Shown here one piece after another: positions 22,506-41,052 of a DNA stretch of 64,000 bases; within the stretch, counting starts at the first letter, position 1; each line of letters starts with the position of its first letter. This stretch comes from an uncultured Candidatus Rokubacteria bacterium (GTDB lineage Bacteria > Methylomirabilota > Methylomirabilia > Rokubacteriales > CSP1-6), in assembly GCA_963771355.1 (NCBI GenBank), contig CAVYTA010000004.1, positions 224,001 through 288,000 of the forward strand, given 5' to 3'. Made by a program: the position numbers and the translations under genes. The notes beneath the pieces are model-generated. The model saw only the letters and a list, made by a program, of their open reading frames with translations. It made no database searches and had not been told where the DNA came from.

Positions 22506-22510
22506 AGCGC

Positions 22511-22837
22511 ATGGAATCATCGAACACGCTCTTCGCCGTCGTTCGCGTGCGTGGCGCGGCCTGGGAGCCGGCCCGTCAAATGCGCGAACAGCGCGCTTGG
22601 CAAGAACATGCTGCGTTCATGAATGCCCTCGCGGCCAACCGATTCATCGTCTTAGGTGGCCCGCTCGGCGACGGGCAACGCGTGCTCCTCATTGTCGAGT
22701 CAAACTCCGAGGCCACGGTTTGCAGTCGCCTTGCACTCGATCCTTGGTCAACAATGGACCTCTTGCGCATTGAGAGCGTCCATCCGTGGAGAGTTCTTCT
22801 TGACCGCAATTCCACGAATCAGCCGCATGGTGGCTAA
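22511..22837 (+). CDS. YciI-like protein (cassette)
   Basis: EHAAFMNAL, LGGPLGDG, LALDPW. Confidence 0.75.
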   Translation: MESSNTLFAVVRVRGAAWEPARQMREQRAWQEHAAFMNALAANRFIVLGGPLGDGQRVLLIVESNSEATVCSRLALDPWSTMDLLRIESVHPWRVLLDRNSTNQPHGG

Positions 22838-22910
22838 CCCTTCGTTACACCCGACCTCGCTACGGCTGGCTTCGCCAACCTCCGCGAGCGGGTGAACTCA
22901 AACGTTGGGT
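22832..22910 (+). other. attC site 9
   Basis: GGCTAAC CCTTC GTTACACCCGACCTCGC...GCGAGCGGGTGAAC TCAAAC GTTGGGT. Confidence 0.9.
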
Positions 22911-22963
22911 CTCAACCGTCAGGAGCGTCGCGCTGCGACCAATCTGCGACTGAAAGGCGCCGA

Positions 22964-23566
22964 TTGCCGAAAGCAAAAACTCTCCTGCTGATCGCACTCT
23001 GCCTCGCGCTCGCCGGCGCGGCACGCGCGGAGGACTGGTCGGCGTGGCAGCGCGCCCACGATCCGGCGACGCGCACGCGCTTCATTCCCGTGGAACTCTG
23101 GACCGGCGCGCCTTGGGACGGCACGCAGGAGATCCGCATGGCGCCCGCGGCGCTCGAGTTCGGGCGGCAGGGAGACAAGAGCATCAAGGGGCCGACGACC
23201 TGGAACGGTATCCAGGTCTACGAGCGCCTGAACCGCGACAAGCTCCAGCTCTTCGCCATCCGCGACGACCGGACGGGCCTCGGTCGCGTTTTCGACTCGC
23301 GCTATCCGCAGCTCGGCTGCCGCGGCGAGGTGAAATTTCCGCTCGGCCGCTGGAAGCAGGGCGAGGTGCGCGAGTACCAGCTCGACTGCGCGCGCGGTAA
23401 GCGCCCGCTCAGAGTGGCGATCGAGGAGATCGACTTCGTCTACGACGGCGTGCCACACTCGCTGCGCTTCCACTGGCTCTTCATGGAAGGGCGCGGCCGC
23501 GGCACCGATATGCGCTACGTGTATAGCCCGCTGCGCGGGCTGGTCGACGTGCAGGGGAACGAGTAG
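22964..23566 (+). CDS. Secreted hypothetical protein (cassette); start uncertain
   Basis: Signal peptide LLLIALCLALAGAARA; RFIPVELWTG, KFPLG.W. Confidence 0.7.
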   Translation: MPKAKTLLLIALCLALAGAARAEDWSAWQRAHDPATRTRFIPVELWTGAPWDGTQEIRMAPAALEFGRQGDKSIKGPTTWNGIQVYERLNRDKLQLFAIRDDRTGLGRVFDSRYPQLGCRGEVKFPLGRWKQGEVREYQLDCARGKRPLRVAIEEIDFVYDGVPHSLRFHWLFMEGRGRGTDMRYVYSPLRGLVDVQGNE

Positions 23567-23586
23567 GCATAGGGGTTCGAAAGTCA

Positions 23587-23675
23587 GCCTAACAACTGAT
23601 TGGAGCGGGCGGCGTTGATGGATGGATGGTCAAGTCGAGATGCTGACAGCGCCGCCGCTGAGTGCAACACTAGGA
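23587..23675 (+). other. attC site 10 (R' mutated to ACTAGGA)
   Basis: GCCTAAC..TTGGAGCGGGCGGCG...CGCCGCCGCTGAG.. Confidence 0.65.
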
Positions 23676-23687
23676 CTCGGAGGAGAA

Positions 23688-24137
23688 ATGGTGATGAGTG
23701 CACAAGGGGTCGTTGTACTGCCGGGACAGGGCTCGGTCTGGAACATATCGCAGGACCGATCGCTCGTGCTCAAGCTCTTGGGCGGAGCGACCGGAGGCAG
23801 CATCATGCTGTTCGAGGAGACCGTTCCCGCAGGGACGAAGAGCTGGTTCCACCTGCATCATGACAGCGACGAGGTAGCCTACGTCCTGAGCGGCGAGATC
23901 ACATTCAAGATTGGCGACGAGGTCACCGCCGGTGGTCCCGGCACCTGCGCCTTCATGCCGCGCGGCGTCCAGCACGCCTGGAAGAACAGCGGCGCGGAAG
24001 CCGGACGGGTGCTGTTCCTCTACACCCCGGCCGCGGCGGGTGGGCTGGTTGAGGAGCAACAGCGGACGCATGAGCGTGCGGGGACCGAGTTGCTCCAGCG
24101 TCACGGCTGGGAGATCGTCGGACCCAATCCGCTCTAA
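23688..24137 (+). CDS. Cupin domain protein
   Basis: HLHHDSDEVAYVLSGE, PRGVQHAW. Confidence 0.9.
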   Translation: MVMSAQGVVVLPGQGSVWNISQDRSLVLKLLGGATGGSIMLFEETVPAGTKSWFHLHHDSDEVAYVLSGEITFKIGDEVTAGGPGTCAFMPRGVQHAWKNSGAEAGRVLFLYTPAAAGGLVEEQQRTHERAGTELLQRHGWEIVGPNPL

Positions 24138-24172
24138 CTGTCTTCAAGAACTTAGCGGAGCGCTGGGATGCC

Positions 24173-24223
24173 GTCTAGCAAGCCGTTAGAGCGGGGCCGG
24201 CCGTCTGCGCCGATCCGTTAGAG
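24173..24223 (+). other. Degenerate attC remnant
   Basis: GTCTAGC AAGCC GTTAGAGCGG...GCGCCGATCC GTTAGAG; internal deletion. Confidence 0.55.
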
Positions 24224-24312
24224 CGCAAATCATTCTTCTCAACCCCATCAACACTAGGCTACCTATCAGAGTCATTGCTGCTGCACTATCCCTCTCCACG
24301 GTCGCGTGCGCC

Positions 24313-25368
24313 GTGCCACCTAAGAGAGTGAACCCTGTTGGCCTTTCCTTTGCTGCGTATGAAGACGCTGCGCGCCGCAGCTGGACCGGGCCTCAGGACC
24401 GCCCATTGGCCACGGCGATCTGGTATCCCGCAGCGCCGGGAAGTCGTGAATCTGAATGGCGAGTCGGCATCTTCAACGCCGGGTGGAACGCACAAAAGGC
24501 CCCGCTGTCCGCTGCCACCACCAAACGTCCGTTGGTCGTCCTATCGCACGGAACCGGCGGTGGAGCGGCAGGAATGGCCTGGCTTGCCGAGACCCTCGCG
24601 TCGAATGGGTATATCGTTGCTGCTGTAAATCACCACGGCAACACGGCGGCCGAACCTTCATACCAGCTTGAAGGGTTTATCCTGTGGTGGGAACGGGCGA
24701 GGGATATTTCGGTCCTCATCGACAAGGTGTCGGCCGACCCACAGTTTGGCGCTCACATAGACCCATCTCGAATCGGAGTCGCAGGGTTCTCTCTAGGTGG
24801 GTATACCGCGTTGGCAACGGTTGGCGCCAGGCTCGCGTATCAGCAGTGGAAGAGCTTTTGCGCCAGCCAGCCACTAGAGCCAAACTGCAACTTGCCCCCG
24901 GAAGCTTCCTTCTCTATGGCAAACGTCCAGCGACTTCTCGATCACGATGATCGTGTCAAGGAGGCGGTCAGCCACTCGCACGAGTCATTCCGTGATGCAC
25001 GAGTCAGGGCAGCATTCGCCATTGCCCCGGTGCTCGGGCCGGCCATGACAAGGGCCAGTCTGGCTGAGGTTAAGGCTCCGGTCCGCATCATCGTCGGCTC
25101 GAAGGATGACCAAGCGGCTCCAGACGTCAACGCGAGGCCGATAGCATCTGCCATTCCGTACGCTGAACTCGAGATTATCCCCAACGTCATGCACTATACG
25201 TTCCTCGCCAGATGCAATTTCTTGGGTAAAGTCATGGCGCGCTCGCTCTGCACTGACCCTGACGAGATCGACAGGGAGGAAGTGCACAGAAGGATCAGCG
25301 CCGACGCGCTCAGCTTCTTCAACCGCACACTACGAGGAGAACTAGACGGCAATGAAGCACGCAAATAA
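24313..25368 (+). CDS. Alpha/beta hydrolase (PAF-acetylhydrolase/dienelactone hydrolase-like); start may lie upstream
   Basis: VLSHGTGG, LASNGYIVAAVNHHG, GFSLGG nucleophile elbow, HYTF. Confidence 0.85.
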   Translation: MPPKRVNPVGLSFAAYEDAARRSWTGPQDRPLATAIWYPAAPGSRESEWRVGIFNAGWNAQKAPLSAATTKRPLVVLSHGTGGGAAGMAWLAETLASNGYIVAAVNHHGNTAAEPSYQLEGFILWWERARDISVLIDKVSADPQFGAHIDPSRIGVAGFSLGGYTALATVGARLAYQQWKSFCASQPLEPNCNLPPEASFSMANVQRLLDHDDRVKEAVSHSHESFRDARVRAAFAIAPVLGPAMTRASLAEVKAPVRIIVGSKDDQAAPDVNARPIASAIPYAELEIIPNVMHYTFLARCNFLGKVMARSLCTDPDEIDREEVHRRISADALSFFNRTLRGELDGNEARK

Positions 25369-25951
25369 GCTGGCAGCGGCTACTCTCGCCATCTTGTTGA
25401 TGGTCGCGCCGGGGCTCGCCAGCGACGATTCCAGCGAAGCGTGGGCGGCGCTGGCCAAGGGCGGCCACGTGGCGTTGATTCGGCACGGTAACGCGCCGCC
25501 CGGCTATGGCGGCGACCCGCCCGGCTTCAGGTTCGACGACTGCAAGACGCAACGGAACCTGGATGACGTGGGGCGCGAGCAAGCCAGGGCGCTTGGTGAG
25601 GCATTTCGGAAGCACGGCGTGCGCGTGGACCGGATCGTGTCTTCGCCCATCTGCCGCTGCGTGGAGACGGGGCAGTTGATGGCGGTCGGCTCGGTTGAGA
25701 CTTCGGGGGGCCTCCTGCCTGATATCGGGTCGGGTAGAGCCCGGGTCCTGGAGCTGGAGGAGATGGTGTCTTCGTGGCGGGGACCGGGCACGCTGGTGCT
25801 GGTGACTCACGCGCTGACCGTCGGGCGCCTGACCGGATTCACCCTGGAACAGGCCGAAACGCTCGTGCTTCAACCGACCCCTGAGAAGCTGCCGGCCGGC
25901 CATCTTCCACGGGGGGGACGCTTGGCGGGCAGGATCCCGCCACCCCAATAG
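25352..25951 (+). CDS. Secreted histidine phosphatase family protein
   Basis: LIRHG, QRNL..GREQA, SSPICRC.ET, LVTH. Confidence 0.85.
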   Translation: MKHANKLAAATLAILLMVAPGLASDDSSEAWAALAKGGHVALIRHGNAPPGYGGDPPGFRFDDCKTQRNLDDVGREQARALGEAFRKHGVRVDRIVSSPICRCVETGQLMAVGSVETSGGLLPDIGSGRARVLELEEMVSSWRGPGTLVLVTHALTVGRLTGFTLEQAETLVLQPTPEKLPAGHLPRGGRLAGRIPPPQ

Positions 25952-25957
25952 GGACGG

Positions 25958-26008
25958 AGACCCTCGCGCTCGAGCGGACGCGCTTCGCGCGCGACCGGGA
26001 CATTAGAG
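25958..26008 (+). other. Degenerate attC remnant
   Basis: GCTCGAGCGGACGCGC TTC GCGCGC-GACCGGGAC ATTAGAG. Confidence 0.5.
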
Positions 26009-26016
26009 GGAGCCGG

Positions 26017-26409
26017 ATGAAATACGGCATCGAGGTATTGGGTGAACAGCCGGGCGACGGACCGATCGTCGAACGCCGCGAGTCGTACCGCATCCGCGTG
26101 AAGATGTGGCTGAACCGAGGCGATCTGGTTCGATGGGAGCGTCCCTGGGATTTTCTTACTCAGGCATACCTCGAGGACGATGGCGCCACACTCGTTACCG
26201 ACGTGCGCATGGATCGAGCCTTCCTGATTCCTGGCCTCTTCTACGGGATGGAGGGGATGCGAATCGGGGGCACACGAAAGCTCCGCATTCCGCCCTCGTT
26301 CGCTTTCGGTGAGACCGGGATCCCCGATCGCATCCCGCCGAATGCCGTGATCACAGCGGAGGTATCCGTGCTGGCGAAGGGGACCGCATCAGGCTGCACA
26401 ATCACGTAA
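26017..26409 (+). CDS. FKBP-type peptidyl-prolyl isomerase-like protein
   Basis: LIPGLFYGMEGMRIGGTRKLRIPPSFAFG...IPPNA. Confidence 0.8.
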   Translation: MKYGIEVLGEQPGDGPIVERRESYRIRVKMWLNRGDLVRWERPWDFLTQAYLEDDGATLVTDVRMDRAFLIPGLFYGMEGMRIGGTRKLRIPPSFAFGETGIPDRIPPNAVITAEVSVLAKGTASGCTIT

Positions 26410-26507
26410 GGCACGCTGGCGCCACCATGGGCATGGGCTCGAGCAGCGTAGGGTAAACTCAGAGCGATAGCCCATTAAGGGGCCCCTTCAGGAGGAGGAC
26501 AAAGAGA

Positions 26508-26807
26508 ATGCTTCTGGACGTCAAGATTCCGCATGAGACCTTCAACGCTGCAGTCCGGGACGGGAGCGCCGGGGAGAAACTGAAGCGAATTCTGGAGGCT
26601 ACGAAGCCGGAGGCAGTCTACTTCACGGAGCGCGACGGGCACCGTGGCGGGATCCTGATCGTGAATCTGGACGACCCGTCGAAGATTCCGGCGTTGGTGG
26701 AGCCGTGGTTTCTCACCTTCAACGCAGATGTAGAGATCCGCGTGGCGATGACACCGGAGGATCTGGCCCGTGCCGGCCTCGATGCGCTTGGGAAGAAGTG
26801 GGTATAG
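26508..26807 (+). CDS. Conserved hypothetical protein
   Basis: KPEAVYFTERDG.RG...IPALVEPWFL; GGAGGAGG RBS. Confidence 0.75.
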   Translation: MLLDVKIPHETFNAAVRDGSAGEKLKRILEATKPEAVYFTERDGHRGGILIVNLDDPSKIPALVEPWFLTFNADVEIRVAMTPEDLARAGLDALGKKWV

Positions 26808-26832
26808 GCCCCGATAACTTCGCAGTTCAGCG

Positions 26833-27660
26833 ATGACGGGAAGCGTTCCTCCACGGATCTACTGCATTCCAGCGACGGTGGCGCCGATCGTGGCGGTGTT
26901 CCGGCGCGGGCCGACGAACTGGTCCCACGTGGGTCGCTGGGATCTCGGAGAGAGACGGTACGAGGCCGGCGCGTGGCTCGGTGGACGGATCTTTCCACGA
27001 CGGTCCGATCTCTCCCCCGACGGTCGTTTCCTCTGCTACTTTGCGCATAAGCCCAGCGCCACCTGGGAACACGGGGAGGCGTACGTGGCCTTGTCGAAGG
27101 TCCCCTGGCTCACCGCGCTCCACGCCTTCCGTACCTGTGGCACGTGGACGCGTGGCTACTACTTCACCGAGGCTGACGATGACGAGAACCCAGCGGAGAC
27201 GAACCTTCCGATCCCCTACGGGTTGCGCTCCATTCCGGTGATTCAATTTGCGAACGAACGACGTCGCGGCTGGGAGGAAGCGACGGACTCTCCCCCACGC
27301 GACCCCGGGGACGCATGGGATGAGCGCCGCAACGCCCGCATCCAGAAACGCCAGCCCGGCGGCGACCGGCTACTGTGTGTGGAAAGTCTCGGACGGGCGG
27401 GAGGCGAGTTCGGCGTCGATCAGGCGGTCGACGGCCTGCGTGTCAGCTACTGGCTGGAAGTAAGTGGAGAGATCCAACTCTTGAATCACCTCCAATGGGC
27501 GGACTGGGATCGAGAAGGACACCTGCTGGTCGCCACACGGAGCGGGCAGCTTCAGGTCTGGAAACTCGATGGCGATGGCTCCGAGGTACTGTTCGAAGAA
27601 GACCTGTCTGTCTCCGAGCCGAACCCGATTCCCGCGCCGGCATGGGCCACGCGATGGTAA
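26833..27660 (+). CDS. Hypothetical protein
   Basis: 275-aa ORF co-oriented with the array; VFRRGP, RRSDLSPDG, WADWD. Confidence 0.7.
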   Translation: MTGSVPPRIYCIPATVAPIVAVFRRGPTNWSHVGRWDLGERRYEAGAWLGGRIFPRRSDLSPDGRFLCYFAHKPSATWEHGEAYVALSKVPWLTALHAFRTCGTWTRGYYFTEADDDENPAETNLPIPYGLRSIPVIQFANERRRGWEEATDSPPRDPGDAWDERRNARIQKRQPGGDRLLCVESLGRAGGEFGVDQAVDGLRVSYWLEVSGEIQLLNHLQWADWDREGHLLVATRSGQLQVWKLDGDGSEVLFEEDLSVSEPNPIPAPAWATRW

Positions 27661-27706
27661 GGGGCTGGGACGACGCCCCGTGTTCAGCGGACACACGGCA
27701 ATCGTC

Positions 27707-28369
27707 ATGACCGACCCGGACCGCCTGGCACACACGGCGCGCGTTCTGAGCGCACACGGCCTAACCTTGCCCGAGCATTACGTGATGTGCTCGGCGGGCT
27801 ATCGCGTGACGCTGCCTTCCGAGGCGTTCGTCTCGCACGCGTTCGCAGTCACGGAAGGCGACCCTCGTGGCCACCCGGCGCGTCCAGAGCTGGCGGCGGC
27901 CCTCCGGCGGCTTCAGACACGTGGGCTGATGTCATGCCTGACCGCAGCGGCCCTTCGCGCGGACGCCCGACGGAGGGCCGCCTCCAGGGTTCCGGAGGTA
28001 ATCACCGAATACCGAGTCGGTCACGTCGATTTCACTCCCAAAGGATACGGGGTCCATCGGGAGGTGATTCGAGCCATCCACGGCGACGACTTTCTCGCAC
28101 GGAGCGACGCGGGCTTCAATCTCGATCTGGACGCGGGCCGCTTCGACGTGTATGCCGTGAGCGTGGACGAGTGTCGCCGGCTGATGGACGAGATCCAAGC
28201 CGGGGGCGACGATTACACGGGTGCAGAGTGCACCCGGTTCGTTGGTCGGGACGGGCCGGCCGCGATCGCGGCATGGCGGCCCAATCGCTTCTTTGTGCGC
28301 GAGGCCGGGTATCATGGCGCTCTGCGCTTTATCAGCGATGCCGCCGAGCTGGCCGTTCGGCATAGCTGA
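27707..28369 (+). CDS. Hypothetical protein
   Basis: Co-oriented ORF after an attC-like fragment TGTTCAGCGGAC. Confidence 0.55.
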   Translation: MTDPDRLAHTARVLSAHGLTLPEHYVMCSAGYRVTLPSEAFVSHAFAVTEGDPRGHPARPELAAALRRLQTRGLMSCLTAAALRADARRRAASRVPEVITEYRVGHVDFTPKGYGVHREVIRAIHGDDFLARSDAGFNLDLDAGRFDVYAVSVDECRRLMDEIQAGGDDYTGAECTRFVGRDGPAAIAAWRPNRFFVREAGYHGALRFISDAAELAVRHS

Positions 28370-28430
28370 GCGGAAACGCGGTGGTCGTGGCCCCCGATAC
28401 GGAGCGTCCGATATCAGAGAGGAGGCCCTG

Positions 28431-28580
28431 GTGACACCAGAAAATCACAAGGCGATCGCTCGGCGGTTCTTCGAGGACGTCTGGAACAAGCAAGCGTTAG
28501 AGGCGATCGACGACATCTTCGCTGCGTCTGTGGCGGATGAGCTCAGCATCCTACAGCAGCTCGGCCAGTTGAGCGCATGA
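28431..28580 (+). pseudogene. Internally deleted SnoaL-like ester cyclase
   Basis: MTPENHKAIARRFFEDVWNKQALEAIDDIFAASV|ADELSILQQLGQLSA aligns to both ends of the 19123-19527 protein. Confidence 0.8.
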
Positions 28581-28602
28581 CCCCCACGCCGAACCGGCGG
28601 AT

Positions 28603-28643
28603 GTCCAACCCCGCAGTCCAGCGGTTTGCGGGCTCGCGCTGCT
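28603..28643 (+). other. Left half of an attC (right arm deleted)
   Basis: GTCCAAC CCCGC AGTCCAGCGG...CTCGCGCTGCT, same family as attC4 and attC8. Confidence 0.6.
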
Positions 28644-28672
28644 GGCCATCACACTGAGAGAGGAGAATCGCC

Positions 28673-29428
28673 ATGCCGTTCTACGAACGAGGCCCCGTCC
28701 GCATCCACTACCAGGAGGCAGGTTCCGGCTTCCCCCTGCTGCTCATTCCCGGCGGCGGGCTCAATTCAGCCCTATCATCCTGGCAGACCGCCTCGCCCTT
28801 CAACCCGATGGAACGGTACAAGGGCGACTTCCGCTGTATCTGCGCCGACCTGCGCAATGCCAATCCCGGCCAGTCCAGCGGCCCGCTGGAGATCGACCGT
28901 CCCTGGGACGCCTATGCCGACGACCAGCTTGGCCTGATGGACCACCTCGGCATCCGGGAGTTCCTGGTCATGGGCTTCTGCATCGGCGGACCGATGATCC
29001 ATAACCTGATCAAGCGGGCGCCGGAGCGCGTCGTCGCGGCCGCGATGATGCAACCCAGCGGGTCCAGGCCTGAGCTCCCGGACCTGTTCTACCAGAACAA
29101 CATCAAGGGCTGGGGACCCGCGCTGTGCGAGAAGCGCCCCGACGTCACGATGGCCATGGTCCATGACTTCCTCACCAGCATGTACACCAACCGCGCCGAC
29201 TTCGTTTTCACCGTGTCGCGCGATTTCGTGCGCTCGATCCAGACGCCGCTGCTGATCGCGCCGGACGACGTGCCCGCGCACCCGTACAAGGTCGCGATGG
29301 AGGTGGCTAGCCTCGCCCGGAACGCCGAGGTGACCATCTATCCCTGGAAGGATTCGCAGGAGCACATCGACGAGGTCGTGGAGCACGCGCGGCGCTTCCT
29401 CAAGGCGCACGAGCCCGTCAGAGCCTAG
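28673..29428 (+). CDS. Alpha/beta fold hydrolase
   Basis: IHYQEAGSGFPLLLIPGGG, GFCIGG elbow. Confidence 0.85.
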   Translation: MPFYERGPVRIHYQEAGSGFPLLLIPGGGLNSALSSWQTASPFNPMERYKGDFRCICADLRNANPGQSSGPLEIDRPWDAYADDQLGLMDHLGIREFLVMGFCIGGPMIHNLIKRAPERVVAAAMMQPSGSRPELPDLFYQNNIKGWGPALCEKRPDVTMAMVHDFLTSMYTNRADFVFTVSRDFVRSIQTPLLIAPDDVPAHPYKVAMEVASLARNAEVTIYPWKDSQEHIDEVVEHARRFLKAHEPVRA

Positions 29429-29436
29429 GATTTCTC

Positions 29437-29489
29437 CATCAACGTGGGAGCGGACGCGCTCGGTGCACCGCTGACCGTGGACGTTAAAG
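29437..29489 (+). other. Degenerate attC
   Basis: CATCAAC..GAGCGGACGCGCTCGGTGCACCGCTGACCGTGGAC GTTAAAG. Confidence 0.6.
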
Positions 29490-29499
29490 GGCCGGTGTG

Positions 29500-29976
29500 A
29501 TGGGCATTCTGGACTTCCTAAAGCGGCCCGCGTTCAGAGATCCGGTGGTGGGCAATCTTCTCCGCCAAGGGCGCTACTGGCGAGGCCAGATCAGCCTCGG
29601 ATCGGAGCGTGACGTGCCGATGCTTCTCGCCGGATCTCGGGCCGCTCCGGACGAAGCAGGCCTCGGACTCGCTCGCGAGCTCGGTCCTCGGTACGCGACG
29701 CTTCTACCGGCCATCGAGCGGGCGCTGTTCGAGCACCAAGAGCCGTATGCCGAGGCGGTGGCATCAGGCGAGGCCGGGCATCTGGTGGAAGTCCCGCGCC
29801 TTGCGAGTCCGGAGCAAGTGTGGGGGCATATCTCGGTCGTGCGCGTGCTGATCGAACCATTGGACGGGGTCGATACGGTGGAGATTGCCTATCGGACGGA
29901 CTGGGACACGGAACACACGCTGGGTGCTCGGTTTCAGGGCTGGGCATTGATCGAACTCAATGGCAGTGTCATCTGA
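29500..29976 (+). CDS. Hypothetical protein
   Basis: Co-oriented ORF directly after attC; WDTEHTLGARF. Confidence 0.7.
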   Translation: MGILDFLKRPAFRDPVVGNLLRQGRYWRGQISLGSERDVPMLLAGSRAAPDEAGLGLARELGPRYATLLPAIERALFEHQEPYAEAVASGEAGHLVEVPRLASPEQVWGHISVVRVLIEPLDGVDTVEIAYRTDWDTEHTLGARFQGWALIELNGSVI

Positions 29977-30067
29977 GGGGACGGGACCGGGTGAGAGAGG
30001 AGCCATCAAAGTAAGCTATGGCCATGTGGGTGGGACATACACGACCAGCTAACCTCGGAGGGCCTCC

Positions 30068-30871: not shown

Positions 30872-30873
30872 CC

Positions 30874-32768: not shown

Positions 32769-32827
32769 ACGCAAACGGTGGGCTTCGGGGCTCCCACCCG
32801 CGGCCGTCTAGCTCGGGCGCCGGAGTG

Positions 32828-33154: not shown

Positions 33155-33245
33155 ACGGCCGCCCCGCCGAGGCGAAGGTGAGTGACGGTGCACCATCGAC
33201 TCGAAGCAGCGCGGCGCGGTTCCCGCGCGGGCGTCTCCGGCTTAG

Positions 33246-33632
33246 ATGCTGATCCTGGTGGTCGGCCTGCTGGTTCCGGTAGCGATGGTGGCACTGTACC
33301 GGTACTTCGTGAGGAAGCGGGATGGGCGGGCTCGGTGGCGCTCGGCCGCCACGATCGGCGCATCGGTTGGCATCACGCGCGCGGTGTTGGCCTGTACGGG
33401 GTGGTACGTAGTCGAGCACACGGGCGGACCACTTCAGATCCCGGCTTTCGCGCTGGCGATGTTGGCATGGCCCGAAGCGATTGTGTTCGGCCGGCATCGA
33501 GGCCCTGTTCCGCTGAGTTTCTATCCCGTGCTTGCACTTCTGCTCATCGTGACATCTATGTCGCTGGTGACCAGTGTGGCTCTCGCGGCACACGCCAGCC
33601 ACGGGCAGCGCGCCGCCCGGAGCGGATCATGA
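33246..33632 (+). CDS. Hypothetical membrane protein
   Basis: Several hydrophobic segments. Confidence 0.6.
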   Translation: MLILVVGLLVPVAMVALYRYFVRKRDGRARWRSAATIGASVGITRAVLACTGWYVVEHTGGPLQIPAFALAMLAWPEAIVFGRHRGPVPLSFYPVLALLLIVTSMSLVTSVALAAHASHGQRAARSGS

Positions 33633-34291
33633 GCGATGACGAGGTTGACCAGACATGGGTCTCGCGCGAGGCCGCCGTGTGTAGTTCGAGGGCGCGGAAG
33701 GCTTTGGTCGCGGCTTTTGTCGCTCTGCTCATAGCGAGCCTGGCGGCGGCTGGCGTCGCCGACGCGGCCGCCGGACCGGGGCGCCCCAGTCTTCCCCAAG
33801 TTCCCTATGAGGACCACGGTGCGTGTCCCTTCGAGTGCTGCACCTATCGGACGTGGACGGTCAAAGCCGATACACCGGTCCGCACGGATCGCCGGGACAC
33901 CGCCCCGGTGGCCTTTCGTGTCCGTCCGGGCGAGCAGGTAAATGGTCTCACGGGCGTCGTGGTCACGAGGAAGCTGGGTAGGGCCACGATCCGGGAGCCG
34001 ATAGTCGTCGAGACGGACAAGCTCGCGCTTGAACCCGGTGAAGCAGTGTCCGTCGTCAACTACATCGGCGAGGGAGTGTGGAAGATCTGGGCGCGGGGAC
34101 GACTTTACCACCTTGAGATCGCGAGCAAGGAGCACACCTGCGCTGGGCACGCCCGAACACCCGGTCCATGTGCCGCCCAGATCGTCGAGGAACCGGAGAC
34201 CGTGTGGTGGGCGAAGGTACGCAACCGCGGTGGGCAGGAAGGTTGGACGCGACAGCTGGATCACTTCGGTCAGATCGACGCTTGCGGCTAG
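33629..34291 (+). CDS. Secreted hypothetical protein (SH3-like beta protein)
   Basis: GACPFECCTY..W, YIGEG..KIW, WWAKVRN..GQEGW, DACG. Confidence 0.7.
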   Translation: MSDDEVDQTWVSREAAVCSSRARKALVAAFVALLIASLAAAGVADAAAGPGRPSLPQVPYEDHGACPFECCTYRTWTVKADTPVRTDRRDTAPVAFRVRPGEQVNGLTGVVVTRKLGRATIREPIVVETDKLALEPGEAVSVVNYIGEGVWKIWARGRLYHLEIASKEHTCAGHARTPGPCAAQIVEEPETVWWAKVRNRGGQEGWTRQLDHFGQIDACG

Positions 34292-34358
34292 ATCCCGTGC
34301 TCGCAAGGGCTGAACCACGGTGGGACAGAGGACTTCGAGAGGGCATGGGCGGTCGTCG

Positions 34359-34796
34359 ATGCTGAACCTGTTCGGCTTCCTGGCGGTGGGGTGCTGCGGC
34401 TTGTTCGCCGGCGCCGCGCTCTACGTCAACCTGGTCGAGCATCCGGCTCGAATGAGCTGCGGCGTGGACCTTGCGCTCCGTGAGTGGGCGCCCAGCTACA
34501 AGCGTGCCTCGGTCATGCAGGCGTCCCTTGCCGTGATCGGCGGCGTGGCCGGCGTGTTGGCGTGGGCGCTCCTGGGCGGTCTCGGCTACCTCGTCGGGGC
34601 TCTCCTCCTGCTGGCGGTGGTGCCGTTCACACTTCTCGTCGTCTTCCCGACAAACAAGCGCCTCCTGGAGCTCCATGCCGAAGGTCAGATTGGTAACGCG
34701 CGCGAGCTGCTCAAGCGGTGGAACGCGCTTCACGCGGTACGGACCGCATTGAGCGTGGTGGCATTCGTCTTGATGCTGCGTGCGCTCAGGGGGTAG
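34359..34796 (+). CDS. DUF1772 (anthrone oxygenase-like) membrane protein
   Basis: GLFAGAALYVNLVEHPAR, PTNKRL, WNALHAVRT. Confidence 0.85.
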   Translation: MLNLFGFLAVGCCGLFAGAALYVNLVEHPARMSCGVDLALREWAPSYKRASVMQASLAVIGGVAGVLAWALLGGLGYLVGALLLLAVVPFTLLVVFPTNKRLLELHAEGQIGNARELLKRWNALHAVRTALSVVAFVLMLRALRG

Positions 34797-34973
34797 ATGC
34801 CAAGTCGGCACCGCCCCCGTCCCCGGCGCGCGATGGTCGCTGGTGTTATGGTTTGTGATGATGATTGCCCGCTGACGCGACTCTTGTGACGATGCGGGGC
34901 TCGTCAACCTGCAAACCTCTTCACGCCTGGTGGCCGAGCTTCGCGGTTGGCGCGACGGATAGAGGAGAAACAC

Positions 34974-35507
34974 ATGGCCGAGCCCCTGAAGGCACTGAAC
35001 CTGAAACGCTGGATCGACGAACACCGTCACCTGTTGAAGCCTCCGGTAGGGGCTGAGGTGATCTGGAAGGACTCCCAGTTCATGGTCATGCTCATCGGGG
35101 GCCCGAACGCGCGCCGAGACTTCCACATCGACCCGCGCGATGAGTTCTTTTACCAGCTTGAAGGCGACATGATCCTGGAGCTCATCGACGAAAGAGGCAA
35201 GAGACAGCGGGAGAAGATCCGGGAGGGAGACGTACTTCTGTTACCGGCCAATACTCCTCATTCTCCACAGCGGCCGGCGAACACGGTGGGCTTGGTGGTG
35301 GAGCCCGTCCGAGGCCCGCATGAACCTGAAAGCTACGCCTGGTACTGTGAGCAGTGCGACGCCAAGCTGTACGACATGTCCAGGGGGGAGGGCGACCTCC
35401 TGCTGGACCTGCGAAGGGTGTCGGAGAAGTTCAATGCGAGTGAAGCGCTTCGAACATGCAGGCCCTGCGGTTACGTGCAGCCGGTGGCGACGGGCCCCCG
35501 CTTGTAG
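34974..35507 (+). CDS. nbaC: 3-hydroxyanthranilate 3,4-dioxygenase
   Basis: LLKPPVG, GGPNARRDFH, EFFYQLEGDM, PHSPQR, rubredoxin-like CxxC pairs. Confidence 0.9.
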   Translation: MAEPLKALNLKRWIDEHRHLLKPPVGAEVIWKDSQFMVMLIGGPNARRDFHIDPRDEFFYQLEGDMILELIDERGKRQREKIREGDVLLLPANTPHSPQRPANTVGLVVEPVRGPHEPESYAWYCEQCDAKLYDMSRGEGDLLLDLRRVSEKFNASEALRTCRPCGYVQPVATGPRL

Positions 35508-35580
35508 TTCGAATGGTCCCGTCGCCCTTGTCGCGAACTCTCGCGGCGGTTCGACAACATCATTCTGGGGAGGAACAGCC

Positions 35581-35880
35581 ATGATCATGCGGATCACGTG
35601 GGGCAAGCTCCGGCCCGGCTCATGGAACGAGTTCGAGAGGACGTACAAGGCGACGGTGGCCGCCAAGGGGGGCACCAGCAAAGGCCTGCGTGGACGGTGG
35701 CTCATGCAGGACACGGCCGATGCGGATACGGGGTTCGCGGTCAGCCTGTGGGAAAACGCGGCGGAGATGCAGGCCTACGAGAAGAGCGATCTCTACCAGA
35801 AGGAGTTCGCGCCCGCCCTCCAGCCGTTCTTCGTCGGGGAGTACAAGACCTATCGCTGTGAGGTCAAGTACATGCAATAG
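35581..35880 (+). CDS. Antibiotic biosynthesis monooxygenase (ABM)-like protein
   Basis: MIMRITWGKLRPGSW...SLWE; GGAGG RBS. Confidence 0.75.
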   Translation: MIMRITWGKLRPGSWNEFERTYKATVAAKGGTSKGLRGRWLMQDTADADTGFAVSLWENAAEMQAYEKSDLYQKEFAPALQPFFVGEYKTYRCEVKYMQ

Positions 35881-35908
35881 CCCGCGCATGGCGGCGCGGT
35901 CGCACACG

Positions 35909-36022
35909 CCCAGGGCCCGGGGGGTCCTCGATACCGATCTGACCGGGAAGAACGCGAGCTTCTCGAATGCGACGATCTTCGTCGGTCTCGTGGAGTGGGC
36001 CGACAAAGTCCTCACGGAATAG
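35909..36022 (+). pseudogene. 3' fragment of a DsrE-like protein
   Basis: ARGVLDTDLTGKNASF...LVEWADKVLTE* resembles a DsrE/F C-terminus; 5' part missing. Confidence 0.5.
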
Positions 36023-36084
36023 TAGCGCGGTCAACCGGACCTACCGGCGAGCCACCGGCAACACCTCGAAAGGAGCACGGGCCG

Positions 36085-36498
36085 ATGCCGCTGCAGGACA
36101 TGTACCCCGTCATCGTCACGCCCCAGCACAAGGAGTGCCGGGACTTCTATGCGCGCTGGTTCGAAGCCGCCGTCGTGTTCGAGGCGTCGTGGTTTGTCCT
36201 TCTGGCATTGCCCGGCGATCCGCCGCGGACGGTGGCCTTCATGGCCCCCGACCATCCCTCCTCGCCTCCAGGCCCCGAAACCTTCAACGGCACGGGTCTC
36301 TTCCTCACGTTCCAGGTCTCGGATGCGGCCGCGGAGTACGCGCGGCTCGAGCAGGGGGGCGCGACGTTTGTCTACGCGTTGCGAGACGAACCGTGGGGCC
36401 AGCGTCGCTTCGCACTGCGGGATCCGTCGGGTTGCTGGGTTGATGTGGTGGAGCAAACGGAGCCGGCGCCGGGCTTCTGGGATCCCTATGTCTCGTAG
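36085..36498 (+). CDS. VOC/glyoxalase family protein
   Basis: RDFY, LRDEPWGQRRFALRDPSG. Confidence 0.88.
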   Translation: MPLQDMYPVIVTPQHKECRDFYARWFEAAVVFEASWFVLLALPGDPPRTVAFMAPDHPSSPPGPETFNGTGLFLTFQVSDAAAEYARLEQGGATFVYALRDEPWGQRRFALRDPSGCWVDVVEQTEPAPGFWDPYVS

Positions 36499-36514
36499 CG
36501 CCGCGCCCTGAGCG

Positions 36515-36994
36515 GTGAACCCCTCGGCTCCCGACCACCCCGCGAACACCGGCCTGCGTCGCCACTGCCAGGCGCAGGCTCAGCGATCGGGCATGCCGCC
36601 GCTCGCCTCTCCCGATGAGGTCGTGCGACCGTACGAGACGCTGGGCACGCATCCTGATCTGGTCGCCCGACTCTGGGACGAGCTCCCGGCCGAGCTGCCC
36701 GTGGATTGTCGAGTGGTCTTCTACGGCATGCCCGTCTTGATGCACCCCACGACGGGCATCGTGTTCGGCTTCGCGGGCGGCACCCACACCTACGCGCTCC
36801 GACTTCCCGAGCGGGAACGGGCGGAAGCGCTCCAAGCCGGCGCCACCCGGATCAAGCACTACCGTTCGGTCCAGATCAGCTTCGATCTCGACGACATCGG
36901 GCCAGAGTGGGTATTTTGCGGGTGGTTCAAGGGCGAGGAAGCGTGGTGTCGTTCGGCGTTCGAGAGCGCGGGTTCTCAAGGGAGCAGAGTATGA
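36515..36994 (+). CDS. Hypothetical protein
   Basis: LGTHPDLVARLW...FAGGTHTYALRLP. Confidence 0.7.
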   Translation: MNPSAPDHPANTGLRRHCQAQAQRSGMPPLASPDEVVRPYETLGTHPDLVARLWDELPAELPVDCRVVFYGMPVLMHPTTGIVFGFAGGTHTYALRLPERERAEALQAGATRIKHYRSVQISFDLDDIGPEWVFCGWFKGEEAWCRSAFESAGSQGSRV

Positions 36995-37054
36995 AGACCA
37001 CCTCGAGCCCTGGCGGCTGAAGCGGGACGGGTGCGGTCGAGAGGCCGTCGCGCC

Positions 37055-37612
37055 ATGGAGCTGGTCTGGCCTTCCCCGCAGCACCTCGAAAGCTATGTCG
37101 CCGCCCTCGAGCGCGGCTGGTCGCCCGACAACGTTCGCGGTGAGACGGCCGCGCGCGAGGAGCTGAGGTCGATCGCCACCGACCCCGCCGCATTCCTCGC
37201 CGGTCTGGTGGACCGTGAGGCAAAGGGCTCGCCCATCACCCTTCCCGACGGCTCGAGGGTCCCACGCCTTCCCGGGTATCGTCGTTGGATGTGGGATGGT
37301 GAGTTCTGCGGGAGCATCGGCTTTCGCTGGCAGCCCGGGACCCCGGCGCTCCCGCCACATTGCCTGGGGCACGTAGGATACGCGGTCGTTCCTTGGAAGC
37401 AGGGAAGAGGGTATGCAACACTCGCGCTCAGGCTATTGCTGCCAGAGGCCCGCGCGGAGGGGTTGCCGTTCATCGAGCTCACCACCGACCCGACGAACAT
37501 GGCCTCTCAGCGAGTCATCCGGGCCAATGGTGGTGTTCTGGTCGAACGCTTCACAACGCCCGCCCAGCTCGGGGCGACTGAGACCCTCCGGTTCAGAATC
37601 ACGCTGTCATGA
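37055..37612 (+). CDS. GNAT family N-acetyltransferase
   Basis: GHVGYAVVPWKQGRGYAT, N.ASQRVI..NGG. Confidence 0.88.
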   Translation: MELVWPSPQHLESYVAALERGWSPDNVRGETAAREELRSIATDPAAFLAGLVDREAKGSPITLPDGSRVPRLPGYRRWMWDGEFCGSIGFRWQPGTPALPPHCLGHVGYAVVPWKQGRGYATLALRLLLPEARAEGLPFIELTTDPTNMASQRVIRANGGVLVERFTTPAQLGATETLRFRITLS

Positions 37613-37622: not shown

Positions 37623-38621
37623 ATGACAAGAAGGTTGCCGGTCATGCGGAGGCTCCGGGTATTCGTGGCCATCGTGCTCGGCCTCCTCTGCGTGCCCTCT
37701 CCGTCCGAGGCTCAGCGGTCCGCCGGGATCGCCCGGATCGGCTACCTCACCCCCACCTCGCAGCCGGCGCGTGAGGAAGTGTTCCGCCAGGAGCTGCGCC
37801 GGCTCGGCTACGCCGAGGGCCAGAATTTTGTCCTGGAGTACCGGTCGGCAAATGGGGACTTCGACCGGCTGCCGGACCTCGCGGCGGAGCTGATCGCGCT
37901 CAACGTGGACGTCCTGGTCACGGTGGTGACTCAGGCCGCTCTGGCGGCAAAGAAGGCGACGGCCACGATCCCCATCGTCATGGTGGGCGTGTCCGACCCC
38001 GTCGGGGTCGGGCTGGTCGCGAGCCTCGCGCGACCGGGCGGCAATGTCACGGGAACGTCGTCCCTGGCGGCCAATGTGGTGGGAAAGCAGCTCGAGTCAT
38101 TGCGAGAGATGCTGCCCAAGGTCTCCCGGGTGGCCACCCTCTGGAACCCGGCGAATCCTGTGTTCCAGAAGCTCCAGCTGGGAGAGGTCAAGGCGGCCGC
38201 CGCGAAGCTGCGGCTGCAGATCCAGCTCTTCGAGGCCCGGACCCCCGACCGGCTGGATCACGCCTTCACGTCGATGGCGAGGCAACGCCCGGAGGCGCTC
38301 CTTGTCCTGGGGGATCCGATGTTCGGCGCGCACTGGGCGCGGATTGCCGAGCTGGCCGCCCGGCACCGCATGCCGACGGTGAGCGGGACGCGAGAGTTCG
38401 CGGACGCCGGTGGCCTCATGACCTATGGACCGGACTACTTCGAGGCGTACCAGCGGGCCGGCCGGTACGTGGACCAGATCCTGAGGGGCGGCCGGCCGGC
38501 CGACCTTCCCGTCGAACAGTCCACCAAGTTCGAGCTGGTCATCAATGCCCGGACGGCGGCGACGCTCGGGATCACCATCCCACGGTCGCTGGTCGGGCGC
38601 GCCGACCGGGTGGTGGAGTGA
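37623..38621 (+). CDS. Orphan ABC substrate-binding protein, paralog 3
   Basis: LRRLGYAEGQN, DPVGVGLVASLARPGGNVTG, PADLPVEQSTKFELVIN, RADRVVE. Confidence 0.9.
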   Translation: MTRRLPVMRRLRVFVAIVLGLLCVPSPSEAQRSAGIARIGYLTPTSQPAREEVFRQELRRLGYAEGQNFVLEYRSANGDFDRLPDLAAELIALNVDVLVTVVTQAALAAKKATATIPIVMVGVSDPVGVGLVASLARPGGNVTGTSSLAANVVGKQLESLREMLPKVSRVATLWNPANPVFQKLQLGEVKAAAAKLRLQIQLFEARTPDRLDHAFTSMARQRPEALLVLGDPMFGAHWARIAELAARHRMPTVSGTREFADAGGLMTYGPDYFEAYQRAGRYVDQILRGGRPADLPVEQSTKFELVINARTAATLGITIPRSLVGRADRVVE

Positions 38622-39559
38622 CGGCGCTGAGGCCGTTTCGCTTCGGCGTGAACGTGTGGGGCGCTGGATCCCGGGGCGAGTGGATCGACAAGGCCCGGAA
38701 GATCGAGGCGCTGGGCTACTCCATCCTGACGGTGCCGGATCACCTGGGGGAGTTCTTCGCGCCCATGCCGGCGCTGGTGAGCGCGGCGCAGGCAACAACG
38801 CATCTTCGCGTGGGCACGAACGTGCTCAACAACGATTTCCGGCATCCCGTGGTCGTGGCGCGCGAGGCGGCCACCGCCGACGTCTTGACCGATGGCCGGC
38901 TGCAGCTCGGCCTGGGCGCCGGCCACATGAGGTCGGAATACGACGAGGCCGGACTGCGCTTCGAGGCCGGGGCCACCAGGGTCGAGCGGCTGGCGGAGGC
39001 GGTCGCCATCGTCAAGGGCCTGCTCGGGGGTGAGGCGGTCACCTCCACCGGGCGGCACTACCGAGTGACCGGGCACACGGTCTACCCGCTTCCCGTCCAG
39101 CGCCCCCGCCCTCCCATCCTCATCGGCGGCAATGGCCGGCGCCTCCTCACCCTCGCGGCGAAGGAAGCCGACATCGTCGGGCTGTCGGGGATCACGTTCC
39201 GGAGCGGTGGGGTCGAGCGGGACCTGTCCGGCTGGCGCACCGTGGGCGTCGACGAGCGGATCCAGCTCATCCGGGAGGCGGCCGGCGACCGCTACGCGCA
39301 GCTCGAGCTGAACGCGCTGGTCCAGCGCGTCGTGGTGACCGACGATCGCCGCCGGGCTGCCGAGGAGCTCGCGCGGCGCTGGACGCCGCTGAGCCCGGCC
39401 GAGATCCTGTCGAGCCCGTACGTCCTGGTGGGAACGATCGACGAGCAGGTCGAGGATCTTCAAGCGCGCAGGGCACGGTGGGGTCTCTCCTACTACGTCA
39501 TCTTCGAGCCGTACGTGGACGCTTTCGCTCCCGTCGTCGCCCGGCTCGCGGGGAGATAG
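38618..39559 (+). CDS. LLM-class (probable F420-dependent) oxidoreductase
   Basis: RPFRFGV, PDHL, NNDFRHP, GRLQLGLGAG, PPILIGGNG. Confidence 0.88.
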   Translation: MTALRPFRFGVNVWGAGSRGEWIDKARKIEALGYSILTVPDHLGEFFAPMPALVSAAQATTHLRVGTNVLNNDFRHPVVVAREAATADVLTDGRLQLGLGAGHMRSEYDEAGLRFEAGATRVERLAEAVAIVKGLLGGEAVTSTGRHYRVTGHTVYPLPVQRPRPPILIGGNGRRLLTLAAKEADIVGLSGITFRSGGVERDLSGWRTVGVDERIQLIREAAGDRYAQLELNALVQRVVVTDDRRRAAEELARRWTPLSPAEILSSPYVLVGTIDEQVEDLQARRARWGLSYYVIFEPYVDAFAPVVARLAGR

Positions 39560-40000
39560 ATGAAAATCGCGATTGGCTCCGATCACGCCGGATTCCGCTA
39601 CAAGGAGATTCTCAAGTCCGCCCTCGCCGCGCGCGGGCACGAGGTGCGCGACTTCGGTACCAGCTCGTCGATGCCCGTCGACTATCCCCTGTTCATCCGG
39701 CCGGTGGCCTTGGGAGTCGCGCGGGGTGAGTTCGAACGGGGGCTCGTGCTGGGGGGGTCGGGCAATGGGGAGGCGATCGTCGCCAACCGGGTCCGCGGCA
39801 TCCGGTGCACGATCGGGTGGAACGTCGAGTCCGTGCGCCTCGGGCGCGCGCACAACGACTCGAACGTCTTGTCGCTGGGGGAGCGGTTCGTCGCGGAGGG
39901 GGACCTCCTGGCCATGCTGGACATGTGGCTGACCACGCCCTTCGAAGGCGGGCGTCACCAGAGACGAATCGAGCTCATCGACGCGGGGGATGGCGCCTAG
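39560..40000 (+). CDS. rpiB: Ribose-5-phosphate isomerase B
   Basis: MKIAIGSDHAG, VDYP, GSGNGE, HND.NV, FEGGRH.RR. Confidence 0.92.
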   Translation: MKIAIGSDHAGFRYKEILKSALAARGHEVRDFGTSSSMPVDYPLFIRPVALGVARGEFERGLVLGGSGNGEAIVANRVRGIRCTIGWNVESVRLGRAHNDSNVLSLGERFVAEGDLLAMLDMWLTTPFEGGRHQRRIELIDAGDGA

Positions 40001-40007
40001 CCTGCCG

Positions 40008-40157
40008 GTGGCCGCCGTGATCACCGCGGCCCGCGGCACGTTTGACACGCTCCGGCTGCGGACGGAGAATCCGACCGCGGCGCGCCTCTACGAGCGGATG
40101 GGGTTTCGCCGCTGCGTCGAGGCCGACGACAGCACGCATGTCATGGAGCTAGCGTGA
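40008..40157 (+). pseudogene. 3' fragment of a GNAT acetyltransferase
   Basis: VITAARGTFDTLRLRTENPTAARLYERMGFRR...THVMELA*. Confidence 0.65.
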
Positions 40158-40173
40158 GTTGCCTGGAGGGCAG

Positions 40174-40542
40174 ATGCAGATCACGGGCGTCATTCCCCAG
40201 CTACGGACGACCGATCTGGCGGCCTCGATCCGGTTCTACACCACCAAGCTCGGCTTGACGCTCGAATTCCAGTACGAGGACTTCTACGCCGGCATCCGAG
40301 CGGGGAACCAGGTCTTCCACCTCAAGCTCTCGGACGAGAAGGACCCGTCGATCGCGTTCGTGGACCAGGAGGAGCACTTTCACCTCTACTTCGAGACCGA
40401 CGATGCCGCCGCGGTGGTGGCCGGATTGAAGAAGAACGGAGTGCCGCTGGTGAAGGAGCTGCACGAGACGCCCTGGGAGACGCGGGAGTTCGCGGTCAAG
40501 GACGATCAGGGGCACACGCTCTACTTCGGGGAGCGGCGCTAG
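40174..40542 (+). CDS. VOC/glyoxalase family protein
   Basis: DLAASIRFY, TPWETREFAVKDDQG. Confidence 0.88.
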   Translation: MQITGVIPQLRTTDLAASIRFYTTKLGLTLEFQYEDFYAGIRAGNQVFHLKLSDEKDPSIAFVDQEEHFHLYFETDDAAAVVAGLKKNGVPLVKELHETPWETREFAVKDDQGHTLYFGERR

Positions 40543-40575
40543 ATTCCCACCGGCGGCGTCGCGGAGCCGACGGCG

Positions 40576-41052
40576 ATGACGGGACGGCGGCTATCGTCGT
40601 CGCTGACCTTTTTCTGGAAGGTTGTCCTCCCGGCGGCCTGGATCGCCGGCTTCGTGGTCTGCGCGGAGTCCGTGTTCTTCGTCTCCCGCGGGAAGGCTCC
40701 CGATCCCGGGCTCCAGTCGCTGAAATGGGCCTTCCTGCTCGTGTCCCTCGTGGGGGCGCCGGCGCTACTCTGGTTCGCCACCGGGCTCAAGCGGGTGACG
40801 CGAGATGGGCCCGATCTGCTCGTCTCGAACTACCGGCGGGAGCTGCGGATCCCGGTGGGGGAGATCCGGCATGTCTACCAGAGCTGGGCGGTGAGCCCCT
40901 GGCGCGTGGTGATCGACATGCGCGCCCCGACCGAGCTCGGCTCGACCTTCGTCTTCATCCCCCGATTCCGTGACGGGCTCACGCATCGGGCGCTCGGCGG
41001 CCAGCATCCCGTGGTCGAGGAGATCCGGGCGATGTGCGATGCGGCGCGCTAG
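40576..41052 (+). CDS. Hypothetical membrane protein
   Basis: Two TM segments, LSSSLTFFWK. Confidence 0.7.
   Translation: MTGRRLSSSLTFFWKVVLPAAWIAGFVVCAESVFFVSRGKAPDPGLQSLKWAFLLVSLVGAPALLWFATGLKRVTRDGPDLLVSNYRRELRIPVGEIRHVYQSWAVSPWRVVIDMRAPTELGSTFVFIPRFRDGLTHRALGGQHPVVEEIRAMCDAAR

Follow-up and report, generated by a model that had tools for sequence, protein, structure and literature searches.

Stepwise loss of attC sites along a predicted chromosomal integron with a deleted integrase in an uncultured Candidatus Rokubacteria bacterium

In integrons, new gene cassettes are inserted at the attI site and push older cassettes outward, and the excision of a cassette requires two attC sites. Loss of attC as a route to stable genes has already been proposed, as far as the accessible text of these studies goes, and is unsurprising in principle: a cassette that loses attC becomes sedentary, or de-recruited (Boucher et al. 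2006, PMC1382264), and attC clusters without an integron-integrase (CALINs) with very degenerate attC have been suggested to be a stage between gene acquisition and final genomic stabilisation (Cury 2016, PMC4889954). Here we describe a locus of an uncultured Candidatus Rokubacteria bacterium which comparison with relatives identifies as a chromosomal integron whose integrase gene, co-oriented with the cassettes, has since been deleted, and along which attC sites are lost in steps with distance from attI. The stretch of DNA analysed, called the window throughout, comprises 64,000 nucleotides (nt) and corresponds to C4:224001-288000 of genome G000 (assembly GCA_963771355.1, contig CAVYTA010000004.1; 70% GC, 99.8% complete).

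Several described systems resemble this locus in part, and the likenesses given here are those found in the accessible portions of each source. In the inverted-integrase integrons of Treponema (Cury 2016; Wu, Doak and Ye 2013, PMC3607928), as here, intI shares the strand of the cassettes, its tail is next to attI and the locus is fixed, and T. phagedenis has likewise lost intI and kept attC remnants (PMC3607928); these integrons belong to another lineage, however, and those portions describe no site-less tail. The ilvD integrons of Xanthomonas (Colombi et al. 2025, 10.1101/2025.06.18.660453) share with our locus an ancestral platform, repeated lineage-specific inactivation of intI and steadier arrays afterwards, but cassettes were counted there by their attC sites, and the strings 'degenerat', 'distal' and 'older' are absent from the main text. 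Most CALINs of Cury 2016 have no recognisable intI pseudogene, whereas attI and an intI remnant survive here, degeneration follows the order of positions along the array, and the same tail occurs in a relative that bears intI, which implies that integrase loss is not required; a position-resolved analysis was not found in the accessible text of that study. In fused class 1 cassettes (PMC4670013), as here, attC loss joins neighbours, sometimes in one open reading frame (ORF); the pair described there is co-transcribed, and an attC-truncated fused cassette is no substrate for the integrase (Fonseca and Vicente 2015, PMC4670013). Hairpin slippage has been proposed as the source of attC deletion (10.1101/2022.09.11.507474). 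Such fused, de-recruited or slippage cases concern single junctions or cassettes outside arrays, whereas about 28 successive junctions of one chromosomal array are concerned here. Our literature search, mostly outside subscription journals, found no study of attC decay by position or of Rokubacteria integrons.

The array comprises 38 short genes, every one on the plus strand. It is flanked by a DUF2277 gene (ending at 16497) and by a minus-strand gene for gamma-glutamyltransferase (41049), and its GC content of 61-70% compares with 72-77% in the flanks. All counts below include c17 and c25, which are possibly not real genes (GC content at third codon positions, GC3, of 0.51 and 0.45). At the head of the array (Table 1) an intI remnant lies on the cassette strand with its tail pointing to attI, and the attI itself is assigned by homology, its counterpart being the DNA that separates intI from cassette 1 in G002, a genome of the same genus. 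No intact intI stands next to the array, and none was found elsewhere in G000, where nine matches to TIGR02249 all fell below the cut-off. Since the remnant and the G002 gene both lie on the cassette strand, the arrangement is that of an inverted-integrase integron; the platform or its remnant occupies the DUF2277 locus in G000, G002 and G003 with variable cassettes, and the attC sites have R'', L'', L' and R' boxes and a bottom-strand hairpin with extrahelical bases. By the IntegronFinder definition (at least two attC sites, no intI nearby) the locus would fall under CALIN, an assignment made by definition and with our own attC model. An Rfam search of the window gave no match, and the skew of the contig, checked for array orientation relative to replication (cf. 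Loot 2017, PMC5371416), is close to zero.

The attC signal was assessed in three ways. A covariance model was built from 24 sites that show covariation and come from genomes other than G000 and G002, three of them from G003; its best chance matches in the window reach 14-15 bits. Half-site matrices were applied to 37 gene junctions of the array and compared with 500 genome junctions (background about 2% at p<=0.01), and 23 junction segments were locally aligned to 57 intact attC sites, with 60 shuffles each. A stricter initial motif scan had detected only two sites in the window.

The covariance model detects eight bottom-strand attC sites at 32.6-59.6 bits between 17898 and 22910; beyond this point the site at 23587 scores 13.5 bits, and no further site exceeds the window background. 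At p<=0.01, one or the other half-site is present at all nine junctions between 17 and 23 kb, at 6 of the 12 between 23 and 31 kb and at none of the 16 between 31 and 41 kb, and the signal over the 37 junctions declines with position (rho -0.78). The positional polarity claimed in an initial annotation of this DNA, including attC sites unrecognisable in the distal part, is therefore real. The smooth gradient described there gives way to three steps, in which a plateau is followed by roughly 8 kb of remnants and then by roughly 10 kb without signal.

At the level of single sites, the initial annotation had read the array as mostly intact up to 22910, and eight of these nine sites are intact or nearly so; that at 21310 is damaged, and those at 19011 and 20566 look one base short. 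Seven of nine proximal sites fold at z <= -2.2, and five of the six remnants folded in zone 2 fold not clearly better than shuffles. Seven of eight remnants named earlier survive scrutiny, in that their alignments beat all 60 shuffles (23587, 24173, 25956, 26812, 28603, 29432 and 30874; 26812 and 28603 barely). The lesions are substitutions and deletions, with L' often deleted, mostly as first described, except that the site at 24173, noted as point-mutated, carries a deletion as well. The eighth, a supposed left half at 31752, was rejected (p 0.33 for the half-site, p 0.52 for the alignment): no more than 7 nt are R''-like, and what remains matches the DinB cassette leader of intact copies. 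Three other candidates were left uncounted, namely 26409 (p 0.07), 27668 (p 0.46) and 36994, which beat 60 shuffles as the single marginal match among 11 segments past 31 kb, with half-sites at background.

The same locus in relatives shows a comparable arrangement. G002 carries a full-length intI with its neighbours at the orthologous site (TIGR02249, 279 bits), followed by 26 attC sites (25 at 26 bits or more) across 21 kb (C14:306551-327257) and then by 27 kb with two half-sites only. Its last intact attC precedes the ortholog of gene c10, as in the window, and its proximal attC scores are similar (median 47 bits, against 39 in G000; p 0.32). Because a full-length intI coexists in G002 with a site-less tail that starts at the same gene, integrase loss is not the main cause of the decay. 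None of the nine proximal cassettes of the window is in the G002 array, and the two tails have in common only c10, c19 and the block 36085-41057. In G003 attC sites occupy the first ~6 kb and none is found in the next 26 kb of C16 (three G003 sites belong to the training set); intI has been deleted at the same place, differently from G000. About 19 kb of tail common to G002 and G003 is missing in G000. In G006 and G001 the locus is occupied by co-oriented accessory genes, with no attC by the model and no intI or attI found. In G005, which is fragmented, DinB, c26, 3HAO and ABM lie near the same right flank in a different order, as expected of single-gene units; G004 and G007, also in fragmented contigs, were covered by a motif scan and a check by eye. 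Four further intI-positive contigs and one continuation stretch hold short arrays of two to seven sites, partly training sites. What may be successive stages are found together at one locus in one genus: an intI followed by 26 sites, a remnant with eight sites, a remnant with a damaged attI, and no platform.

Whether the site-less genes were once cassettes can be judged from their homologs, and the loci of homologs were scanned for attC for 15 of the 16 genes past 31.75 kb. Complete attC-flanked homologs, a search for which the initial annotation had proposed for distal genes, exist for four of the 15: DinB (2 of 6 loci), the membrane protein c26 (1 of 2), ABM (1 of 10) and the GNAT gene c33 (1 of 2). 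An upstream right half-site accompanies the glyoxalase half of a fusion ORF (30926..31744) in one of six loci. Evidence of cassette origin extends to 37.6 kb. It does not support such an origin for the five final genes (37.6-41.05 kb), none being attC-flanked among the close homologs tested; their link to the array consists of their orientation, their absence from four relatives at this locus and the ABC family, which forms the intact cassettes c1 and c8.

Codon use and divergence provide a second view of age. GC3 at synonymous positions (GC3s) is 0.69, 0.74, 0.76 and then 0.89 by zone, against a genome median of 0.92, and correlates with position (rho 0.56, p 3e-4, n 38; without the last five genes 0.35, p 0.047, n 33). 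The codon adaptation index (CAI) increases similarly with distance, and in G002 the correlation of GC3s with position is 0.63 on rough gene calls; plots of both measures against distance from attI had been proposed in the initial annotation. For c2, c5, c10 and c11, which lie at or before 24.1 kb, relatives hold copies at a synonymous divergence (dS) of 0.06-0.17 against 0.27-0.66 for core genes, three of them at another locus, which indicates recent exchange; the other proximal genes have distant copies only, or none. The distal block differs from G002 at dS 0.22-0.62 (core 0.16-0.32; one partly aligned gene 1.23), with a ratio of nonsynonymous to synonymous divergence (dN/dS) of 0.14-0.54, and its dS is at or above that of the core in both G002 and G003, with synteny kept. 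By these divergence estimates, the last 5 kb are shown to be vertically inherited and under purifying selection.

We consider it likely that the locus is an integron with a deleted integrase in which sites are intact near the entry, broken in mid-array and undetectable far from it, and in which the far genes are probably older cassettes that were kept since they could no longer be excised. The array would work as a one-way filter. Cassettes between two working attC sites would be excised and lost, and the proximal zone would turn over, in keeping with the lack of any proximal cassette common to G000 and G002. Damage to an attC, probably in many cases a deletion across its hairpin, would mean that the adjoining gene could no longer be removed singly, and such genes would accumulate distally. 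Spacers and genes that are not needed would then be trimmed by ordinary deletion, with fragments, tight junctions and an in-frame fusion as the result, and useful genes would persist and drift toward host codon use. The boundary would be older than the loss of intI in the G000 lineage, which would merely have added fresh damage to the proximal sites, and the tail would be a mosaic, likely including DNA that was never a cassette. The age series with genes locked into the chromosome, as initially proposed, agrees in part with the data: the cassette homologs, the rise in GC3 and CAI, the syntenic block under purifying selection and the polarity in G002 and G003 bear it out; a cassette origin of the last five genes is not supported.

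A number of observations weigh against this explanation. No trend exists inside any zone (p 0.22, 0.91 and 0.98), nor in the intact zone of G002 (rho -0.22, p 0.28). For eleven of the 15 distal genes none of the close homologs is flanked by attC, with zero counts for SRPBCC (3 loci), c27 (10), DUF1772 (1), 3HAO (5), c31 (9), c32 (1), c34 (2), LLM (29), RpiB (79; default filters, with a model trained on this lineage), c37 (15) and c38 (3). The G002 intI has frameshifts and its activity is thus only predicted, although the frameshifts are probably assembly errors, since core neighbours are frameshifted too. The tail is not frozen, given the pattern of sharing among G000, G002 and G003, and those of G002 and G003 include opposite-strand and long genes. 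A second G003 array is already broken directly behind attI, and c10 and c11 stand without attC in G006 and G003 at dS 0.10-0.17; attC loss can be quick and is not limited to old cassettes. The three genomes of one genus are not independent.

A different account ends the array near 31 kb and regards the DNA up to the gamma-glutamyltransferase gene as an accessory insertion hot spot beside the integron, with a few cassettes at secondary sites. It would explain why none of the 16 distal junctions has attC signal, why 11 of 15 distal genes lack a cassette homolog, why G001 and G006 carry co-oriented accessory genes here with neither attC nor platform, and why RpiB has its closest outside relatives in other phyla and no attC at 79 loci. 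Yet all 16 distal genes are short and co-oriented, and as far as 37.6 kb their GC3 is mostly low; homologs that are complete cassettes exist for four of them, the DinB junction retains part of a cassette leader, the ABC family of c34 is twice an intact cassette in the same array, and the attC-less relatives may represent a later stage of the same decay. We regard the hot spot as unlikely for the distal region as a whole, and for the last five genes by themselves as evenly balanced. It is still less probable that decay followed integrase loss, after which no attC site would have been under selection any longer and chance together with a late burst of insertion near attI would have produced the seeming gradient. 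The 99.8% complete genome has no intact IntI, three of nine proximal sites are already blemished, the second G003 array decayed right at attI, and G000 and G003 lost intI by different deletions, all of which this account would accommodate; it is opposed by G002, where a full-length intI and 26 sites go together with a longer site-less tail and the same boundary gene, and by proximal scores that are alike in G000 and G002.

It seems to us very improbable that errors of long-read assembly in hairpin DNA account for the damaged sites, even though the assembly has few contigs, another G000 array contains a noisy duplicated stretch, and G002 and G006 have frameshifts. Metagenome contigs from four studies span the sites at 23587, 24173, 25956, 26812, 30874 and 31752 at ~98-99% identity (one run is possibly the source sample), and these six of the eight named sites are therefore not assembly errors; among the matches listed, no metagenome record spans 28603 or 29437. 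In addition, the ORFs are open on both sides of the sites, and errors would lack polarity.

The explanation of older cassettes retained by attC damage could be carried further, to a conveyor that we hold tentatively and find rather doubtful. Arrays of this lineage would build accessory chromosome while the integrase is still present, with attC deleted far faster than neutral substitution would erase it, as the complete loss behind c10 and c11 within dS 0.10-0.17 suggests, with a sharp boundary gene, and with a tail that yields new genes such as the fusion. If so, much site-less accessory content, including many PF04392 copies, would be hidden integron output. Of an array such as this, tools that count attC would register about a quarter (6 of the 24 kb in G000, and 21 of the 49 kb in G002). 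The locus offers a dated and comparable case: the same site can be followed in several relatives, one of which has an integrase gene of full length, the boundary gene is shared, and site-less genes have complete-cassette homologs. Its value is that of one well-controlled example toward a systematic test.

The distal genes had initially been read as domesticated into operons, on the strength of three overlaps or abutments (33629/33632, 38618/38621 and 39559/39560). All three exist, and they amount to 3 of 16 junctions (median gap 49.5 nt), no more than in the genome at large, where 28.4% of 3234 co-oriented junctions overlap or abut (median gap 13.5 nt; Fisher p 0.58). The Pfam functions of distal neighbours are unrelated. 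The junctions at 38618/38621 and 39559/39560, which make up an ABC-LLM-RpiB adjacency, are retained in G002 and G003 only, and the 33629/33632 pair is separated in G005; elsewhere, an RpiB or ABC neighbour occurs at 0 of 27 LLM loci and LLM at 1 of 79 RpiB loci. These data do not sustain the operon claim; the latter counts equally give no non-integron synteny in distant relatives. A gene overlap of 17 nt lies at 25352-25368.

Two features had escaped the initial annotation: the integrase is deleted, and deletions strike genes as well as attC sites. Genes cut by deletion have left fragments at 28431, 35913-36022 and 39990-40157. Variant metagenome contigs omit most of c12 (24193-25298; runs X5 and X9) and of c17 (27727-28530; run X5), with breakpoints that are not attC crossovers, a weak observation. 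The GNAT::glyoxalase ORF is likely a young fusion that arose through loss of a stop codon and spacer: its second half retains its own Shine-Dalgarno sequence and an ATG at 31382, the fusion is confined to G000 (the other 39 of 40 matches in 183 genomes never span both halves), and contigs of two runs span it gaplessly. As in fused cassettes, partial or total loss of attC appears to join genes of this array, in one case in a single ORF, of which the GNAT half is only presumed to stem from a cassette.

Table 1. Features of the array and its head (window positions; scores are those of the covariance model)
Feature	Position	Strand	Remarks
intI 3' remnant	16569..16637	+	69 nt, last ~22 codons, one-base frameshift; 84% match to end of G002 intI (E 7e-32 including attI)
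attI region	16638..16830	+	predicted crossover G|TT at 16824/16825; aligned with intI-to-cassette-1 DNA of G002 and with G003
Zone 1	16880..22910	+	nine cassettes: two PF04392 ABC substrate-binding (c1, c8), HAD, SnoaL (c4), DUF6968, RibD_C, three without Pfam match; attC 8/9 intact or nearly
attC, intact	17898..17955	+	55.3 bits
attC, intact	18611..18706	+	42.7 bits; same site in G006 with HAD cassette, 96% identity
attC	19011..19102	+	33.4 bits; seemingly one base short in L''
attC, intact	19560..19630	+	52.8 bits
attC, long type	19941..20042	+	32.6 bits
attC	20566..20628	+	36.4 bits; looks one base short; lowest-energy fold not the recombinogenic form
Damaged attC within zone 1	21310..21371	+	8.6 bits; R' altered; folding no better than shuffles
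attC, intact	22433..22505	+	59.6 bits
Last intact attC	22832..22910	+	39.0 bits
Boundary cassette c10	22911..23566	+	no Pfam match; also just past the last intact attC in G002 (93% identity)
Zone 2	23567..30925	+	twelve junctions, six with half-site p<=0.01; cupin, two alpha/beta hydrolases, His_Phos_1, FKBP, DUF3303, DUF6985, CN hydrolase
attC, left half intact, R' core mutated	23587..23675	+	13.5 bits
attC remnant	24173..24224	+	R'' point change and internal deletion
attC remnant without L'	25956..26010	+	half-site and alignment
Left-half remnant, marginal	26812..26838	+	14-nt exact match to G002 attC; half-site p 0.12
Short SnoaL-like fragment	28431-28580	+	no Pfam match; named from likeness to c4
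attC left half and central motif	28603..28652	+	half-site and alignment; family D2
attC remnant	29432..29491	+	right half intact, left part shortened
Last detectable remnant	30874..30919	+	R'', L'' and R' retained; ~14 nt including L' deleted
GNAT::glyoxalase fusion ORF	30926..31744	+	272 aa; in-frame
Zone 3a	31770..37612	+	eleven attC-less genes, including DinB (31770), membrane protein (33246), ABM (35581), GNAT (37055)
3' gene fragment	35913-36022	+	3' end of a longer G003 reading
Zone 3b	37623..41052	+	ABC substrate-binding, LLM, RpiB, GNAT-like fragment (39990-40157), glyoxalase, hypothetical; GC3 0.89; syntenic in G002 and G003

Further platforms occur in these genomes. G000 contains three more attI-like heads (C8:125033, minus; C6:1214333, plus; C6:2498448, minus) that are 70-88% like the window attI, each followed by four to eight attC-like sites and no intI, which brings the total to four platforms without an intact integrase. 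In the C8 array, the DNA about 0.8-1.3 kb past attI nearly copies the first cassette but is noisy and AT-shifted, and is probably an artefact of long-read assembly. A two-gene cassette lies about 1.5-2.0 kb past attI; we take it to resemble a pair of addiction-module antitoxin and ParE/RelE-type toxin. Secondary arrays are likewise present in G003 (C29) and G006 (C19:714 kb). In the former, an attC right behind attI (L050, C29:37465-37483) is reduced by deletion of the whole hairpin to an R'' nearly abutting R' (19 nt; 18.8 bits).

Metagenomes and single genes of the array provided additional observations. DNA near-identical to the window is found in soil and rhizosphere metagenomes, and RNA runs contain a small fraction of the stretch (0.06-0.22). 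In a contig of run X9, 537 other letters precede the match to c27, which starts only at 33705, and run X5 spans 33641-33705 unchanged; the c26/c27 junction may vary among strains. The depth of contigs of run X13 is low over much of the interval 17-22 kb and increases from 23 kb onward, contig depth being no evidence by itself, and contig joints link 16497 to 18699 and 16746 to 17963, with sides of ~30 letters at 90% likeness that are too weak to count as evidence. This depth pattern and the joints near attI are a hint at strain-level turnover, not evidence of it. The fragment at 35913-36022 is presumably the 3' end of a DsrE-like gene, whose counterpart in G003 (L048:18467-18826) continues past an in-frame TGA that occupies a Cys-like position; this TGA may encode selenocysteine or mark a broken gene. 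RpiB (39560-40000) has its nearest relatives outside the genus in Verrucomicrobia, Planctomycetes and Gemmatimonadota (62-78% identity), which points to a horizontal origin. Finally, the PF04392 ABC substrate-binding genes (16880-17854, 21395-22384 and 37623-38621 in the window) have many copies in G000 and its relatives, some clustered and some in intact cassettes, and the expansion of this family may have been fed by cassette traffic.

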